Virus record (IMG/VR): IMGVR_UViG_3300028394_000041
Coordinates: 1-64,000 of that record
Source: a virus
Length of the DNA stretch: 64,000 nt
Direction: 5' to 3' (one strand)
Position numbers and translations under genes: made by a program. This document shows positions 38,463 to 54,753 of this stretch, piece after piece. The notes below the pieces were generated by a model that worked only from the letters and a program-made list of their open reading frames with translations, searched no databases and was not told where the DNA came from. Every line of letters starts with the position of its first letter. Positions within the stretch are counted from its first letter, which is position 1.

Positions 38463-38505
38463 ATTTTAAAGATTTTTACTTAATTTTTATGTGTAAACAA
38501 AGAAT

Positions 38506-40437
38506 ATGATAGAAACACTATTTGCTGGAATTAATGGATTTCCTAAAATACCTGGAAAGAAAAATTATTACAACTCAGAAGCCGAAAATAATTGCGAAGT
38601 CAAAATTGGAAAAGGCGATGATTTAGAATTAACCTATGAAAATGGATTTTCTCCCTCTTTTGAAGAGACTAATGTAGCCAAAGCCGATCCAGCATCAGTA
38701 ATTTCTTGTGACGGTTACGGAAGTTGGACATATAATCTATTAATTCCCAAAAATTTTGTTTCTGAGTTTATCTATCAAAGGCAAGGAAGCAACCCAAGGT
38801 CATCAGACATATTGGCCATGATTGAACCACTATATGTTATTTATAAGAATGAAATTAATTCTGACAAATTAGTTAGTTTTCTTCCTTGGATTGTTAAACA
38901 AATTAATGCATACTCTGCAAAAAGTTTTAAAAGTATATATATAAAAAGCTATACCCTTCCAACTATTAGAAAAATTACATACTTAAATCAAGCGCAAACA
39001 ATAACAGCAAACACAGACCAAGGAACTCAATTCGGCATTAGTTCCTCAAAATATGGACTCAGACAAAATTTAAGTTTTGTTGATAAAACTGAAGAATTTT
39101 ACAGATTAGCTATTGATGTAAAAACAGATCCAAACGTTTTTGCAGCAAACAAAAATAGAACAGATTTGACTATAAATAATTTTGATATACATGCAATGAG
39201 AATAGATAATTTTTATGTAGTACATTCAAAAGTAAAAGATGATCATCAACCGAGCTTAACAAAAACTTTAAGTGGTCAAACTATTGCCGCTTCTGATAAA
39301 ATAGTTAAGGCAAATCATTTATTATTTAATAATTCAATAGTTAATTTTTCAAAAATAAGACAAACAAATGGAAATCCTCCTTCAGGATCAGAACCATTAA
39401 AAGAATTAATCAATTATTATGTTGTTAACGCTACAGCAGATGATTTTCAAGTATCTTTAACTCCAAGTGGAACTCCAGTAAATATAGGCTTACAATATAA
39501 TGTTACATTCATAACTGAAGCAAGTCTCCCTTTAACAGTTAGCAACTATTTGACTTTCAAAGTTAATTTTGGAACATCAAAATTATACAAAGTTCCGACC
39601 TTAAGAAATTTCACAAAAAGAGAAGACGTTAATAAAATTGATAGAAGTCTCTCTCTTAAACAATCTTTAAATAAATTTAAAGAACAAAACTCAATTCAAG
39701 TAGCTCAAACTGGTGATATATATTATAGTCAAGGAATGATTCCATTGAGTGTTTCTGGATATGCGTTTACAGGAAACACAATTAATTGGATGCAAAATAA
39801 TATAGTTGACCTTAGACCTCAATATTTAAATAGCGGGCTGTTTGATAGCAGAAAAACAGGAGATGGAAACGTAATTCAAGCAGGAACAGTAAGCACATAT
39901 TTCAGATTAAAAAACGACGCCACTGCCTTTCAAAATGAAACTCTATCTGTAAAATATTACAGTATAACTGGAAATTCTGGAATATTTAAATCTATAAATG
40001 AAACAGGATTTTTCAAGAATAATTCTGGAGATGCAACTTACAAGAGCGGAGTTTATACAAAGTTCTATCAAGATATTCAAGATTATCTTTCTGAGAATTA
40101 TGGCTATTTAACAGATAAAGTTTATGCCTCAACACAAAATCATCCAAACTTCTTTATATATAATGAAGCAGCAAAACAAAGAAATGGATTTTACGGTGGA
40201 ATAAATCACTTTTATTTAGAGAGTGGTTTTACTTTTATATTACCAGCTAATTTTTATTTATTCGCTCACACAGCGCCATTAGATCAAAGCACATATACTG
40301 CTAAAATTACAGGAATATCATTAGTATCATCAGATGCATTCAAACAAAATGTAGGAGATATTCTAAAACTAGGAATAACAACAAATTCAAAGTGGAAACT
40401 AAATCCAGATACAAAAGTATATGATAAATCAAGTTAA
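38506..40437 (+). CDS. large hypothetical protein, probably virion-associated
   Basis: 643 aa, beta-rich; YYVVNATADDFQVSLTPSGTPVNI segment of a type seen in phage tail proteins; GTGTAA 9 nt upstream. Confidence 0.6.
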   Translation: MIETLFAGINGFPKIPGKKNYYNSEAENNCEVKIGKGDDLELTYENGFSPSFEETNVAKADPASVISCDGYGSWTYNLLIPKNFVSEFIYQRQGSNPRSSDILAMIEPLYVIYKNEINSDKLVSFLPWIVKQINAYSAKSFKSIYIKSYTLPTIRKITYLNQAQTITANTDQGTQFGISSSKYGLRQNLSFVDKTEEFYRLAIDVKTDPNVFAANKNRTDLTINNFDIHAMRIDNFYVVHSKVKDDHQPSLTKTLSGQTIAASDKIVKANHLLFNNSIVNFSKIRQTNGNPPSGSEPLKELINYYVVNATADDFQVSLTPSGTPVNIGLQYNVTFITEASLPLTVSNYLTFKVNFGTSKLYKVPTLRNFTKREDVNKIDRSLSLKQSLNKFKEQNSIQVAQTGDIYYSQGMIPLSVSGYAFTGNTINWMQNNIVDLRPQYLNSGLFDSRKTGDGNVIQAGTVSTYFRLKNDATAFQNETLSVKYYSITGNSGIFKSINETGFFKNNSGDATYKSGVYTKFYQDIQDYLSENYGYLTDKVYASTQNHPNFFIYNEAAKQRNGFYGGINHFYLESGFTFILPANFYLFAHTAPLDQSTYTAKITGISLVSSDAFKQNVGDILKLGITTNSKWKLNPDTKVYDKSS

Positions 40438-40510
40438 CGAACCTCAACCACAATGCCCTAGTCCAGCGCCTAGAGGCGCACCGCAAAATCCAGTAGAGAC
40501 TGGAGTATAA
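40421..40510 (+). CDS. 29-aa Pro-rich peptide (not in ORF track)
   Basis: MINQVNEPQPQCPSPAPRGAPQNPVETGV; stop abuts next start (TAA-T-ATG). Confidence 0.4.
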   Translation: MINQVNEPQPQCPSPAPRGAPQNPVETGV

Positions 40511-40511
40511 T

Positions 40512-52591: not shown

Positions 52592-52592
52592 A

Positions 52593-53606
52593 ATGATTCA
52601 TTCTTTGGCAGAGCTTAAAGATAAAGTTAAATGCACTTCTTCAGATGAAGCGGAAAAATTAGCAAGCGTTGCTGGTTTTGTAGCCGCAAGAGGAACGGAT
52701 GATTCGGATTTTAGTTACTTAACTGGTAAAGAAATATTTCAACCAGACACAGGACATATACTTAGATATTTAGAAGTTAGTCCAGAAAAATATCACTGGA
52801 TTGGACATTCAGAATTTTCTTGGTTCGTGGGAGAAGCCTTGCCAGTAATTTACGGACTGTTCTTAAAAAAACATTTGGAGTATTTAGTTTCTTTTGAAGG
52901 CTCTGAGCCGTATCTATTTTTCTTGCCAAAGGATAAATACTTAATCTCTTCTGGATGCGAAGTAGGTACTTTAGGTGGATCGCCACCTTATTTAGGAAAT
53001 CCTATTTACGAAAAAGAGTACAAATCTATAAGTCCGTATTGGACACCGCCACCATTAAAAGACTTTTATAAAGACAAAATTAAATTTAATTTTACCAAAC
53101 CTCTATTAATTATAAATAATAAATTAACAGATGAATGGTCAGGCAGACCAATAAACTGCTTTCACAGCAATGAATTAGAAAAATTATTGCAAATTCTTGA
53201 TAACAAATACGCAATAGGTTACATTAGAGCATTAGGAAACGAAAACGGATTTTGTAACGATGGAAGCGTTATGGAAAAAAGCAATGATTTTGAAATTGTA
53301 CGAAATAATTGTTCTGAATCTGTTCTTATTCAAGATTTAATGCATGATTTAAGAATAAATTTTAATTTGGCTCAATGCTTGATGCATGCTCAAAGTGATT
53401 TACATATATCTTCTGCTGGAGGAAATGCCATCCTCGCTAGTTATTTTGGAGGAAAAAATATAATGATAGGCAGAGGACAATATTTTAATGATAGAAAAGT
53501 GTGGGGAGAAGACTCCTGGCTTAAAAATTTATCTGGGTCCCAAATGCTACATCTAGATTTGGAGCCAAACAGTAACTGGGAAGAAAAAATAAAAGATCTA
53601 CTCTAA
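52593..53606 (+). CDS. hypothetical protein, possible GT-B glycosyltransferase
   Basis: position in operon; EF.W...P, ISSAGGNAILASY pattern. Confidence 0.5.
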   Translation: MIHSLAELKDKVKCTSSDEAEKLASVAGFVAARGTDDSDFSYLTGKEIFQPDTGHILRYLEVSPEKYHWIGHSEFSWFVGEALPVIYGLFLKKHLEYLVSFEGSEPYLFFLPKDKYLISSGCEVGTLGGSPPYLGNPIYEKEYKSISPYWTPPPLKDFYKDKIKFNFTKPLLIINNKLTDEWSGRPINCFHSNELEKLLQILDNKYAIGYIRALGNENGFCNDGSVMEKSNDFEIVRNNCSESVLIQDLMHDLRINFNLAQCLMHAQSDLHISSAGGNAILASYFGGKNIMIGRGQYFNDRKVWGEDSWLKNLSGSQMLHLDLEPNSNWEEKIKDLL

Positions 53607-53607
53607 T

Positions 53608-54753
53608 ATGAGCAGTAACTTTCAAGAAACTTATTACGGCAAGAAAATAGATACAGCTAATATTTTGAATATTGAAGATGCTAGTAAAATTATAAAAGGA
53701 AGAAAAACTGTAGTTGTAACTGGAGTAACTGGGCAAGATGGAAGCCACATGGTAGACTTTCTTTTAAAAAATACAGATTTACTAATTTTCGGAGGAGTTA
53801 GAAGACTCAGTGTATACAATCACGAAAATGTTAAACATATTCAATCGGACAGATTTCATTTGATTAATTTTGATCTTACTGATTCTCATGCTATAGCTCG
53901 AACAGTTGAAAAACTCCAACCAGATTATTTTATAAATTTCGCAGCTCAAAGTTTTGTTGCTAGTAGCTGGGATTTTGCGAAACAAACTTGGGCAACAAAT
54001 TCAACCAGTGTTCTAGACATACTCGAAGCTATTAGACTTTACAAACCATCTTGTAGATTATATCAAGCTGGCTCTAGTGAAGAGTTTGGAAACGTATTAT
54101 ATAGCCCACAAGATGAAAAGCACCCATTAAGACCAAGAAGTCCATATGGAGCAAGCAAAGCCGCCTCTAGACAATTAATTAAAGTATATAGAGACTCTTA
54201 TAATCTTTATGCTATTCAAGGGTGGTTATTTAATCACGAAGGAACTCGTAGGGGCGAAGAATTTGTAACAAGAAAAATAACTAAAAACATAGCAAGGATT
54301 TTTAATGCTTTAAAAAACAATCAAGAATTTAAACCTCTTGAGCTAGGCAATATGGACGCTAAAAGAGATTGGAGCGATGCTGAAGATTTTATCGAAGGCG
54401 TATGGATGATGTTGAACCAAGATAGCTATAATCATAACTATGATGGAATAGCTCAAGACTACGTCTTTTCGTCCGATGAAACTCATACTATTAAGGAGTT
54501 TGTGGAAAAAGCTTTTGCTGTAGCTGGGGTTCATGGTAATTGGTTAGGTGAAAATGAACATGCTATGTACATATCAAATGAAAATAAGATATTAGTACAA
54601 GTTAATCCTAAATTCTATAGGCCTGCAGAAGTAGAATTATTACTAGGCAACTCTAATAAAGCCAGAGAAGAACTAGGTTGGAAGCCAAAAATTTCATTTG
54701 ACAAATTAATAGAAAAGATGGTATTATGGGACATTGAAAATTACAAGCCATAA
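53608..54753 (+). CDS. gmd: GDP-mannose 4,6-dehydratase
   Basis: TGVTGQDGS, AAQSFV, SSEEFG, PRSPYGASK, FNHE..RRG.EFVTRKI, LGN.DAKRDW, RPAEV. Confidence 0.95.
   Translation: MSSNFQETYYGKKIDTANILNIEDASKIIKGRKTVVVTGVTGQDGSHMVDFLLKNTDLLIFGGVRRLSVYNHENVKHIQSDRFHLINFDLTDSHAIARTVEKLQPDYFINFAAQSFVASSWDFAKQTWATNSTSVLDILEAIRLYKPSCRLYQAGSSEEFGNVLYSPQDEKHPLRPRSPYGASKAASRQLIKVYRDSYNLYAIQGWLFNHEGTRRGEEFVTRKITKNIARIFNALKNNQEFKPLELGNMDAKRDWSDAEDFIEGVWMMLNQDSYNHNYDGIAQDYVFSSDETHTIKEFVEKAFAVAGVHGNWLGENEHAMYISNENKILVQVNPKFYRPAEVELLLGNSNKAREELGWKPKISFDKLIEKMVLWDIENYKP

Follow-up and report, generated by a model that had tools for sequence, protein, structure and literature searches.

The stretch described here is the first 64,000 nucleotides of the IMG/VR virus record IMGVR_UViG_3300028394_000041 ("the window" below is that whole stretch), and the element in question is a run of genes at 38506-54753: a large protein, P0001, two paralogous proteins, P0002 and P0003, whose C-terminal domain begins CWVAREVYG, and an operon of 15 sugar-enzyme genes. 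To judge from its gene content and from related loci, this segment is a cassette peculiar to its strain within a hypervariable glycan island. An earlier note had placed P0001, the two CWVAREVYG paralogues and 15 tightly coupled genes here, and those positions held, as did the operon and the absence of export genes; its glycosyltransferase count is too high as a secure figure, and the mucin character it gave to the paralogues and the structural type it gave to P0001 are unproven. The genes, in order, are as follows.

38506-40437, plus strand: P0001, a 643 AA beta-rich protein, from a homologue family of constant length (641-655 AA)
40512-41159, plus strand: P0002, 215 AA, predicted bitopic membrane protein with a stalk and a CWVAREVYG C-terminal domain
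41194-41805, plus strand: P0003, 203 AA, paralogue of P0002 with the most Ser/Thr-rich linker (31%)
41850-42653, plus strand: probable GT-A (GT2-like) glycosyltransferase, first gene of the operon; homologues annotated GT2
42646-43497, plus strand: probable GT2 glycosyltransferase, sub-threshold (PF00535, 20 bits against a cut-off of 23.3)
43445-44314, plus strand: possible GT-A glycosyltransferase, weak (TIGR03111, E 0.004 over 48-113)
44311-45192, plus strand: GT47/RXYLT1-like protein, sub-threshold (PF24785 at 3.1e-5 and PF03016 at 4.7e-5, both below cut-off)
45189-46067, plus strand: possible GT13-like GT-A glycosyltransferase, weak (PDB match to the POMGnT1 catalytic domain, E 0.0036)
46064-46759, plus strand: DUF2334 protein, polysaccharide-deacetylase-like (PF10096, 41.9 bits; start taken from the homologue in L002)
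46761-47645, plus strand: GT2 glycosyltransferase, secure (PF00535, 37.9 bits)
47642-48379, plus strand: soluble protein with no Pfam, NCBIfam, PHROG or PDB match
48379-49386, plus strand: GT4/GT1 (GT-B) glycosyltransferase, secure (PF13692, PF00534)
49379-49825, plus strand: GNAT N-acetyltransferase (PF00583, 52.9 bits)
49822-50865, plus strand: short-chain dehydrogenase/reductase (SDR), UDP-glucuronate decarboxylase-like (PF01370)
50862-51509, plus strand: probable methyltransferase, sub-threshold (PF08242, 22.5 bits against a cut-off of 30)
51506-52591, plus strand: DegT-family sugar aminotransferase (PF01041, 301 bits)
52593-53606, plus strand: soluble protein with no Pfam, NCBIfam, PHROG or PDB match
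53608-54753, plus strand: GDP-mannose 4,6-dehydratase (Gmd; PF16363, 344 bits), the lineage-wide anchor of the island

All 15 genes of the operon (41850-54753) lie on the plus strand, and their junctions are overlaps of 1-76 nt or gaps of 1 nt. Family calls are secure only above the Pfam cut-off, which was passed by the GT2, GT4/GT1, GNAT, SDR epimerase/dehydratase, DegT, Gmd and DUF2334 proteins; the others are graded as sub-threshold, weak or inferred. On this grading the operon is predicted to encode two secure glycosyltransferases and about five probable ones, and the eight or nine of the earlier note are too many as a secure figure. The first gene, at 41850, gave no direct Pfam match, though it has 156 homologue clusters, some of them annotated PF00535, while the second, at 42646, matches a PHROG beta-1,4-glycosyltransferase (5.8e-7) and the SunS family (1e-4). 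PDB sequence searches with the products of 41850, 47642 and 52593 returned blank or meaningless matches. The other enzymes had been named much as they are found here: the GNAT, DegT and Gmd calls pass their cut-offs, the deacetylase is represented by the DUF2334 protein and the decarboxylase-like enzyme by the SDR, the methyltransferase alone remaining probable at its sub-threshold score. The nearest PDB entry to the SDR is UXS1 (E 1e-43), followed by the ArnA decarboxylase domain (about 1e-19); the DegT protein matches 4zwv/4xau (2e-72), CalS13 (1e-62) and ArnB (9e-47), and its nearest relatives, the CalS13/AtmS13 and ArnB enzymes, are 4-keto-pentose aminotransferases. Because the one is nearest to UDP-glucuronate decarboxylase and the other to these aminotransferases, a branch leading to a UDP-4-amino-4-deoxypentose is suggested. 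Promoter-like sites at 41789-41816, just before the first gene, and at 54698-54727 are consensus matches only, and a promoter and terminator scan gave site counts at chance level.

By hydropathy, no credible membrane segment was found among the 15 operon proteins, the sole stretch to reach the cut-off being an internal one in the DegT aminotransferase, and neither Pfam nor hydropathy revealed an initiating phosphoglycosyltransferase, Wzx/Wzy or an ABC exporter in the operon. Related cassettes are alike in this respect: of 396 open reading frames (ORFs) in the islands of 36 relatives, 383 are free of hydrophobic segments, 12 carry a single one and 1 carries two, and none encodes a polytopic membrane protein. 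The glycan pathway is accordingly predicted to be cytoplasmic and self-contained for sugar activation and transfer, and the earlier proposal of a cytoplasmic pathway stands.

The island character of the segment comes from its relatives. Gmd adjoins the gene for the UvsX recombinase in all 46 related loci of at least 12 kb with adequate sequence upstream of UvsX, at 54-92% identity, and island genes other than Gmd are common only to L118 and L145 (partial), besides scattered weak matches. In the 36 relatives, the 396 ORFs in the 9.7 kb upstream of UvsX fall into 210 clusters, a single one of which, Gmd, is common to the loci. A Pfam tally over 149 island representatives is dominated by epimerase/dehydratase, RmlD, DegT, Methyltransf_24/FkbM/TylF, glycosyltransferases of families GT2/8/10/25/61/GT1, and nucleotidyltransferases. 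Unrelated islands are seen even beside the backbones nearest to that of the window phage (UvsX 94-96%, helicase 98%), and some relatives with similar backbones have islands of just 4-5 kb, with the ribonucleotide reductase (RNR) block inverted. In L140 the RNR block (L140:1380-5633) is inverted relative to UvsX, as it seemingly is in several others, by contig coordinates, and the spacing between RNR and UvsX among relatives runs from ~7 to 35 kb.

The arrangement of paralogues and operon is repeated in one contig only, IMGVR_UViG_3300032321_001791, where a P0001 homologue (72%) is accompanied by three tandem paralogues and by the same operon at 79-96% protein identity, most of its genes being 92-96% identical. 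Between the two contigs, synonymous divergence (dS) lies at 0.29-1.0 for the genes between P0001 and Gmd inclusive, against mostly 1.4-2.7 for those running from UvsX to the PHP gene, this being one contig pair in which values above 1 are saturated. Since a single divergence age, differing from that of the backbone, covers P0001, the paralogues and the operon, they appear to travel together, and the island, P0001 and the paralogues included, would have a younger common ancestor than the backbone around it. The ratio of non-synonymous to synonymous divergence (dN/dS) is 0.03-0.10 for the enzymes, indicating strong purifying selection, with the exception of the methyltransferase at 50862-51509, the fastest-evolving enzyme, at 0.26. 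For P0001 it is 0.32 and for the paralogues about 0.27, which is 5-10 times the enzyme rate at the protein level; these three genes thus look like fast-evolving passengers of the cassette.

Various other proteins are seen in the flexible regions of relatives. L188:14919-19997 encodes a 1692 AA PA14/GLEYA/LamG lectin-like protein, and L172:10539-12554 (minus strand) a 671 AA Cys-rich protein whose poly-proline tracts reach about 20 residues; among the other large proteins heading relatives' islands are a carbamoyltransferase and a protein with RCC1 repeats. A 280 AA protein at L219:18273-19115 has a signal peptide and, by eye only, a PEP-CTERM-like end (VIPEPSSFSLLIIGGTMLYGLRKLRKNG).

P0001 has 14 homologue clusters at 39-72% identity and no Pfam, PDB or whole-fold match. 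Weak PHROG tail-fibre matches fall at its residues 253-336, and fold searches with an AlphaFold2 (AF2) model (pLDDT 64.5) gave only local Ig-like/beta-sandwich likeness to phage fibre and structural proteins, at TM-scores near 0.1; protein atlas scores were all below 0.9. The large protein of the earlier note is thus there, while "structural-type" goes beyond these weak fibre and local beta-sandwich similarities. An alignment search with P0001 reached two contigs only, and single-sequence locus searches with P0001, P0003 and the homologue P0010 yielded no additional loci. In one relative (L324:11932-12738, on IMGVR_UViG_3300032321_001533) two tandem paralogues of 128 and 135 AA directly follow a P0001 homologue (41%). 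Both begin with the peptide MNWLDREMLGLRRKDKLGAPRYYE in their N-terminal part and have a weakly hydrophobic segment, a charged helix and a tail rich in Pro/Thr; they lack the CWVAREVYG domain and are followed by minus-strand genes, with no operon. This pair is an analogous, non-homologous partner of the P0001 family, and its place beside a P0001 homologue without the operon implies that small Pro-rich tandem proteins recur together with the P0001 family and not with the glycan enzymes. Two pairs of homologue clusters share a longest-contig entry, P0010 with P0164 (59,361 bp) and P0169 with P0175 (31,583 bp), which is merely a hint of co-location.

P0002 and P0003 both end in a 63 AA domain beginning CWVAREVYG. 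In P0002, an N-terminal tail of charge -10 precedes a predicted transmembrane segment at 66-82, a 70 AA linker and a C-terminal domain of charge +3. This plan is common to nine homologues: in each, an acidic N-terminal tail (charge -10 to -19) is followed by a single hydrophobic helix, a 64-76 AA linker (Pro 24-57%, Ser+Thr 9-31%) and a basic C-terminal domain of 63-66 residues that begins CWVAREVYG. Pro makes up 44% of the P0003 linker and Ser+Thr 31%, while the linkers of homologues P0008 and P0010 have just 9% Ser+Thr at unchanged length. The retention of Pro content and linker length speaks for a spacer more than for a mucin tract, even though the P0003 linker, taken alone, would be a fair O-glycosylation substrate. 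The paralogues had been described earlier as Pro/Thr/Ser-rich; they are indeed Pro-rich, but not consistently Ser/Thr-rich, and the transmembrane helix in each had been overlooked. An AF2 model of P0003 (pLDDT 54.6, low confidence) shows a transmembrane helix at 54-75, a stalk in extended form and, at the C-terminal end, three helices. Apart from CFI-box, discussed below, the paralogues have no match in Pfam, PHROG or NCBIfam, whether to TonB_C, to Rz/spanin or to any other family, and their likeness to periplasm-spanning proteins of the TonB or spanin type is architectural only.

A profile search found the CWVAREVYG domain in 1369 protein clusters, and no fewer than 565 IMG/VR contigs encode it; among the 150 best matches listed (81 to 1533 residues) it almost always forms the C-terminal end. 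All 77 copies compared match NF041770 (CFI-box-CTERM) end to end, with model positions 1-66 of 69 aligned from the conserved Cys onward, and all fall below the cut-off, scoring 14-25 bits against 40 (P0003 16.9, P0002 13.9; best E 4.6e-5). Like the CWVAREVYG form, CFI-box-CTERM is a C-terminal domain of ~65 AA in which an invariant Cys is followed by an aromatic residue, an aliphatic one and Ala; it differs in its CFI start, and the branch from phages and Planctomycetota scores below its cut-off. These scores mark CWVAREVYG as a distinct branch of CFI-box-CTERM. A literature search found no paper mentioning CFI-box-CTERM/CFIATAAYG or the CWVAREVYG form, which we put forward here as a new and, by its matches, large branch of a catalogued, unstudied C-terminal domain.

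In 79 of 80 IMG/VR loci, the domain ends a protein of 350-1370 residues, after a segment that is Gly/Ala/Gln-rich, not P/T-rich, and among the matches listed from a metagenome scan it occurs only in this large-protein form. Podovirus-like contigs (L005-L070) have a fixed order in which proteins of 650-850, 400-1100 and 115-170 AA precede the domain protein and others of 450-850 and 1000-2350 AA follow it, the flanks having weak PHROG matches to virion and tail proteins; we take this to be the position of an internal/ejection protein in the T7-like gene order. By tblastn, the sole isolate with the domain is Puniceispirillum phage HMO-2011, in gene 25, beside tail-fibre genes. The domain is also frequent in Planctomycetota genomes, where it ends signal-peptide proteins of ~1500 residues, sometimes in two copies and after Gly/Met- or Gly/Gln-rich linkers (L330-L387, for example L355 on a 412-kb contig), as well as a second class of lipoprotein-like proteins of ~447 AA. 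Its occurrence in phage structural-module proteins and in Planctomycetota envelope proteins gives it the look of an envelope-associated terminal module, and these cellular relatives suggest that the C-terminal domain of the paralogues is exported. Against this, several homologues carry positive charges on the C-terminal side of the transmembrane helix, an arrangement that under the positive-inside rule favours a cytoplasmic C-terminal domain.

Linkage of the domain to glycosylation genes was sought in both directions. BLAST found no homologue of an island enzyme (the operon or the 396 island proteins) in the 79 other domain-bearing loci (1.02 Mb), and no CWVAREVYG ORF occurs in 160 related loci with UvsX or RNR as anchor, a set in which many have glycan cassettes. 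Glycan genes lie near the domain neither in Planctomycetota nor in the small phages where it usually ends large structural-module proteins. The co-localisation of CWVAREVYG proteins with glycosyltransferase clusters that the earlier note had proposed as a check was therefore largely not borne out, its only repeat being IMGVR_UViG_3300032321_001791, yet P0001, the paralogues and the operon are of one divergence age.

The GC content of the window is about 30% throughout, and its genes are of the phage replication and host-takeover type. They include rIIA/rIIB, DNA ligase, clamp loader, sigma factor and RNR genes, a UvsX-like recombinase, a DnaB-like helicase, ThyX, primase, a PD-(D/E)XK nuclease, a PHP protein, an exonuclease, the start of the gene for a C-family polymerase, and a nucleotide-metabolism set to which ThyX and RNR also belong (PurA-like, IMPDH/GMP-reductase-like, dCMP deaminase, dNMP kinase). 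Pfam and PHROG scans detected no structural (virion) gene within the 64-kb window. One window protein is also recorded on a 166,605-bp contig. UvsX has 421 IMG/VR relatives, of which the 80 listed show 85-96% identity, and the RNR small subunit has 298. The sequencing runs containing the stretch are freshwater and lake metagenomes, with no RNA runs among those listed; other lake metagenomes contain pieces of the same cassette, and a megablast search with the region matched no isolate phage. The source phage belongs to an abundant, uncultured, low-GC freshwater lineage with a large genome. The island is flanked by the following features.

38077-38462, plus strand: tmRNA gene with a 24-residue tag (ARAGORN), the left landmark directly before P0001
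54734-55075, plus strand: 113 AA ORF between Gmd and UvsX, very divergent among relatives
55059-56204, plus strand: UvsX/RecA-like recombinase (PF00154, phrog_97), the conserved right flank

The tmRNA gene lies in an ORF-free gap at 37459-38505. The 113 AA ORF is a small fast-evolving gene at the island edge: its identity is 52-93% across relatives, with a dN of 0.36, and only 52-75% in relatives whose flanking genes are 80-90% identical. Outside the island, a GT-B glycosyltransferase at 31613-32698 (Glycos_transf_1, phrog_2170; 67% in L140) is a candidate for a lineage-wide function, since it is conserved in relatives, unlike the island genes. A BspA-type leucine-rich-repeat protein lies at 24135-25199 (PF13306, 369 bits), and a repeat protein similar by eye is seen in L324:14020-15141 (minus strand). 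At 25414-29550 the PurA-like, IMPDH/GMP-reductase-like and dCMP deaminase genes are clustered with tRNA-Ser and tRNA-Asn as a nucleotide-conversion set.

The reading that we favour, as the likeliest of several and still a tentative one, is that the operon glycosylates phage proteins in the cytoplasm. Gmd would supply a GDP-6-deoxyhexose derivative, one of at least two activated sugars, and the decarboxylase-like SDR with the CalS13/ArnB-like aminotransferase would yield a UDP-4-amino-4-deoxypentose, which could then be N-acetylated by the GNAT protein or methylated by the sub-threshold methyltransferase. Working in the cytoplasm, about seven transferases would build an oligosaccharide on an acceptor needing no dedicated flippase. 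That acceptor would most likely be a protein, probably a phage-made, exposed virion protein, a newly exported polysaccharide being less likely: cassettes that are soluble throughout, with no polytopic protein in the 36 others, fit direct protein glycosylation better than an exported polysaccharide. Multi-enzyme soluble sets with validated protein glycosylation occur in other viruses, acting on the capsids of chloroviruses, the fibrils of mimiviruses and the capsids and tails of mycobacteriophages, while the phage lipopolysaccharide (LPS) modifications that have been demonstrated experimentally, to our knowledge, use membrane enzymes; it is because the soluble viral precedents act on proteins and LPS modification uses membrane enzymes that glycosylation of phage proteins is preferred. 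Of the earlier interpretation, the cytoplasmic pathway is supported and the dedicated mucin-like acceptors are not.

Several points weigh against this reading. The window holds no virion protein, the whole of it being replication, nucleotide-metabolism and rII region, and such a setting does not indicate late co-expression with structural genes. Bacterial O-antigen loci likewise contain soluble transferases, and a phage might build on the lipid-linked intermediates of its host and rely on the host's exporters. The PEP-CTERM-like (by eye) and lectin-like proteins of relatives suggest the cell surface as much as the virion, and the dS comparison is of a single pair with saturation above 1. Finally, for comparable islands in pelagimyophages, the describing authors prefer the view that the host O-chain is modified (PMC7029224).

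Host-envelope remodelling, the reading which that paper proposed for the analogous pelagimyophage and cyanomyophage islands, is the strongest rival, and on the whole we think it rather unlikely here. Soluble enzymes would add to the host's lipid-linked or lipid A-core intermediates on the inner side of the membrane, and host exporters would deliver the altered glycan; the surface of the infected cell, so changed, would keep rival phages, or the progeny of the phage itself, from adsorbing. The location of the island among early-type genes (rIIA/rIIB, RNR, UvsX) suits such a role, as do the signal-peptide, PEP-CTERM-like and lectin-like proteins encoded in relatives' flexible regions and the GT8, GT25 and GT9-type families, typical of LPS, that are found in relatives. 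Yet the 37 cassettes contain no priming transferase, flippase, polymerase, ligase, ABC transporter or Gtr/Oac-type enzyme, and in bacteria such membrane and export genes co-vary with the glycan; the membrane enzymes on which known phage LPS modification relies are likewise at odds with it.

It is unlikely, if only a little more so, that the paralogues are independent of the glycan and act as inner-membrane-anchored tethers spanning the periplasm, their C-terminal domain binding an envelope component that is also bound by the ejection proteins of many phages. Their role would then be superinfection exclusion, as decoys, or envelope disruption at lysis, with a spanin- or TonB-like geometry. The acidic tail, transmembrane helix, constant spacer of ~70 AA (24-57% Pro) and small terminal domain are what such a tether would have; the domain elsewhere ends large proteins at the T7-like internal/ejection position (as inferred from synteny) and exported proteins of Planctomycetota; rII-type exclusion genes lie on the same genome arm; and in L324 the non-homologous tandem proteins with Pro-rich tails follow a P0001 homologue without the operon. 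The charges flanking the helix in several homologues point the other way, favouring a cytoplasmic domain, and no spanin, TonB or other family match was obtained. Decoys directed at podoviruses of the same host were considered and rejected: the GC content of the domain-bearing podovirus-like contigs is 35-57% against 29% in the window phage, which gives no support for a shared host.

Two further readings make the paralogues carriers of the glycan, and we regard both as improbable. On the first, the cassette would be a self-contained, horizontally exchangeable glycoprotein-display unit, a private cytoplasmic glycan pathway with its own fast-evolving carriers in P0001 and the stalked CWVAREVYG proteins, whose Pro/Thr stalks would receive the glycan ahead of, or in the course of, their insertion into the membrane or incorporation into the virion. 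If so, a strain-specific glycoprotein coat would be borne by every phage strain or by its infected cells, anchored via an envelope-docking domain common to the ejection-module proteins of many phages. The second, which we hold to be slightly more doubtful still, is the proposal of the earlier note that the paralogues are dedicated O-glycosylation acceptors of the operon and become virion glycoproteins. It draws on their position directly upstream of the operon and their co-inheritance with it (the same dS class), on the three paralogue copies that precede the same operon in the sister contig, on the composition of the P0003 linker, on a fast evolution of the kind shown by exposed proteins, and on the domain's place at the end of phage structural-module proteins elsewhere. 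Each paralogue, however, has a transmembrane helix, and the Ser/Thr-poor linkers of P0008 and P0010, constant in length, suggest a spacer; the domain is unlinked to glycan genes in the 79 other loci and absent from the 160 related ones despite their many cassettes; the relative with a P0001 homologue has different small tandem Pro-rich proteins and no adjacent operon; and the signal peptides of the Planctomycetota proteins imply that the domain acts outside the cytoplasm, beyond the reach of soluble transferases. Least of all do we expect DNA hypermodification, in which the operon would glycosylate phage DNA bases and so evade restriction, since, for all that the island lies among dCMP deaminase, dNMP kinase, ThyX, RNR and replication genes and that phage DNA glucosylation is a known precedent, 15 genes with amino-sugar formation, acetylation, methylation, deacetylation and ~7 transferases far exceed known DNA glycosylation, no hydroxymethylase is found in the window, and the cassette is hypervariable, unlike conserved DNA-modification modules.

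The preferred reading, cytoplasmic glycosylation of phage proteins, can be set beside systems already described. Chloroviruses and mimiviruses encode Gmd, amino-sugar enzymes, sugar methyltransferases and soluble cytoplasmic glycosyltransferases of their own, and their glycan structures vary between strains or clades. They differ in being giant viruses of eukaryotes with the major capsid protein and fibrils as acceptors; in the window phage the host is a bacterium and the genes lie in one swappable island. In mycobacteriophages, virion O-glycosylation is carried out by phage-encoded glycosyltransferases acting on phage proteins in the cytoplasm, with two to four transferases beside the capsid and tail genes and with C-terminal extensions of the capsid and tail-tube proteins as acceptors. 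Here, by comparison, there are 15 genes with full sugar-nucleotide pathways, far from any structural gene. Bacterial O-antigen and capsule loci resemble the island in their sugar activation and transfer genes, their hypervariability and their conserved flanking anchor, but the 37 cassettes have no initiating transferase, Wzx/Wzy, Wzm/Wzt or WaaL, nor, unlike seroconversion modules of the Gtr/Oac type, any GtrA/B/C- or Oac-like membrane protein. Glycosyltransferases have elsewhere been taken to suggest capsid glycosylation (PMC11256854).

The closest likeness is to the "host recognition cluster" of pelagimyophages and cyanomyophages, a hypervariable, non-syntenic, glycosyltransferase-rich island (Zaragoza-Solas et al., 2020, PMC7029224) that joins LPS-type sugar genes with big adhesin- or fibre-like proteins and whose function is there a matter of speculation only. 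Both are non-syntenic islands of large aquatic phages with glycosyltransferases, sugar genes and large adhesin- or fibre-like proteins. The pelagimyophage cluster, in T4-like genomes, lies in the structural module between VrlC and gp14, whereas the island described here lies between tmRNA/RNR and Gmd-UvsX-DnaB-ThyX-primase, in a phage that differs further in its C-family polymerase, the placing of the island on a replication arm, the conserved Gmd anchor and the exchangeable cassette. Since hypervariable glycosyltransferase-rich islands have been described in large aquatic phages, the kind of island is already known; what is new here is the genomic setting and phage type, the Gmd anchor, the evidence of cassette exchange and the absence of export genes from every one of the 37 cassettes.

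Large aquatic phages give ~8% of their genome to glycan genes, and we know of nobody who has determined the target of the products. The present lineage is an unusually clean case, with a Gmd anchor, dozens of alternative cassettes that are all soluble, and signs of cassette movement between diverged backbones; the absence of export genes from 37 of them makes the question of virion versus host surface a testable one and tilts it toward protein glycosylation. The CWVAREVYG domain, for its part, links podovirus structural-module proteins, Planctomycetota envelope proteins and the stalk proteins of this island, and its ligand could reveal how phage proteins dock in the cell envelope generally.

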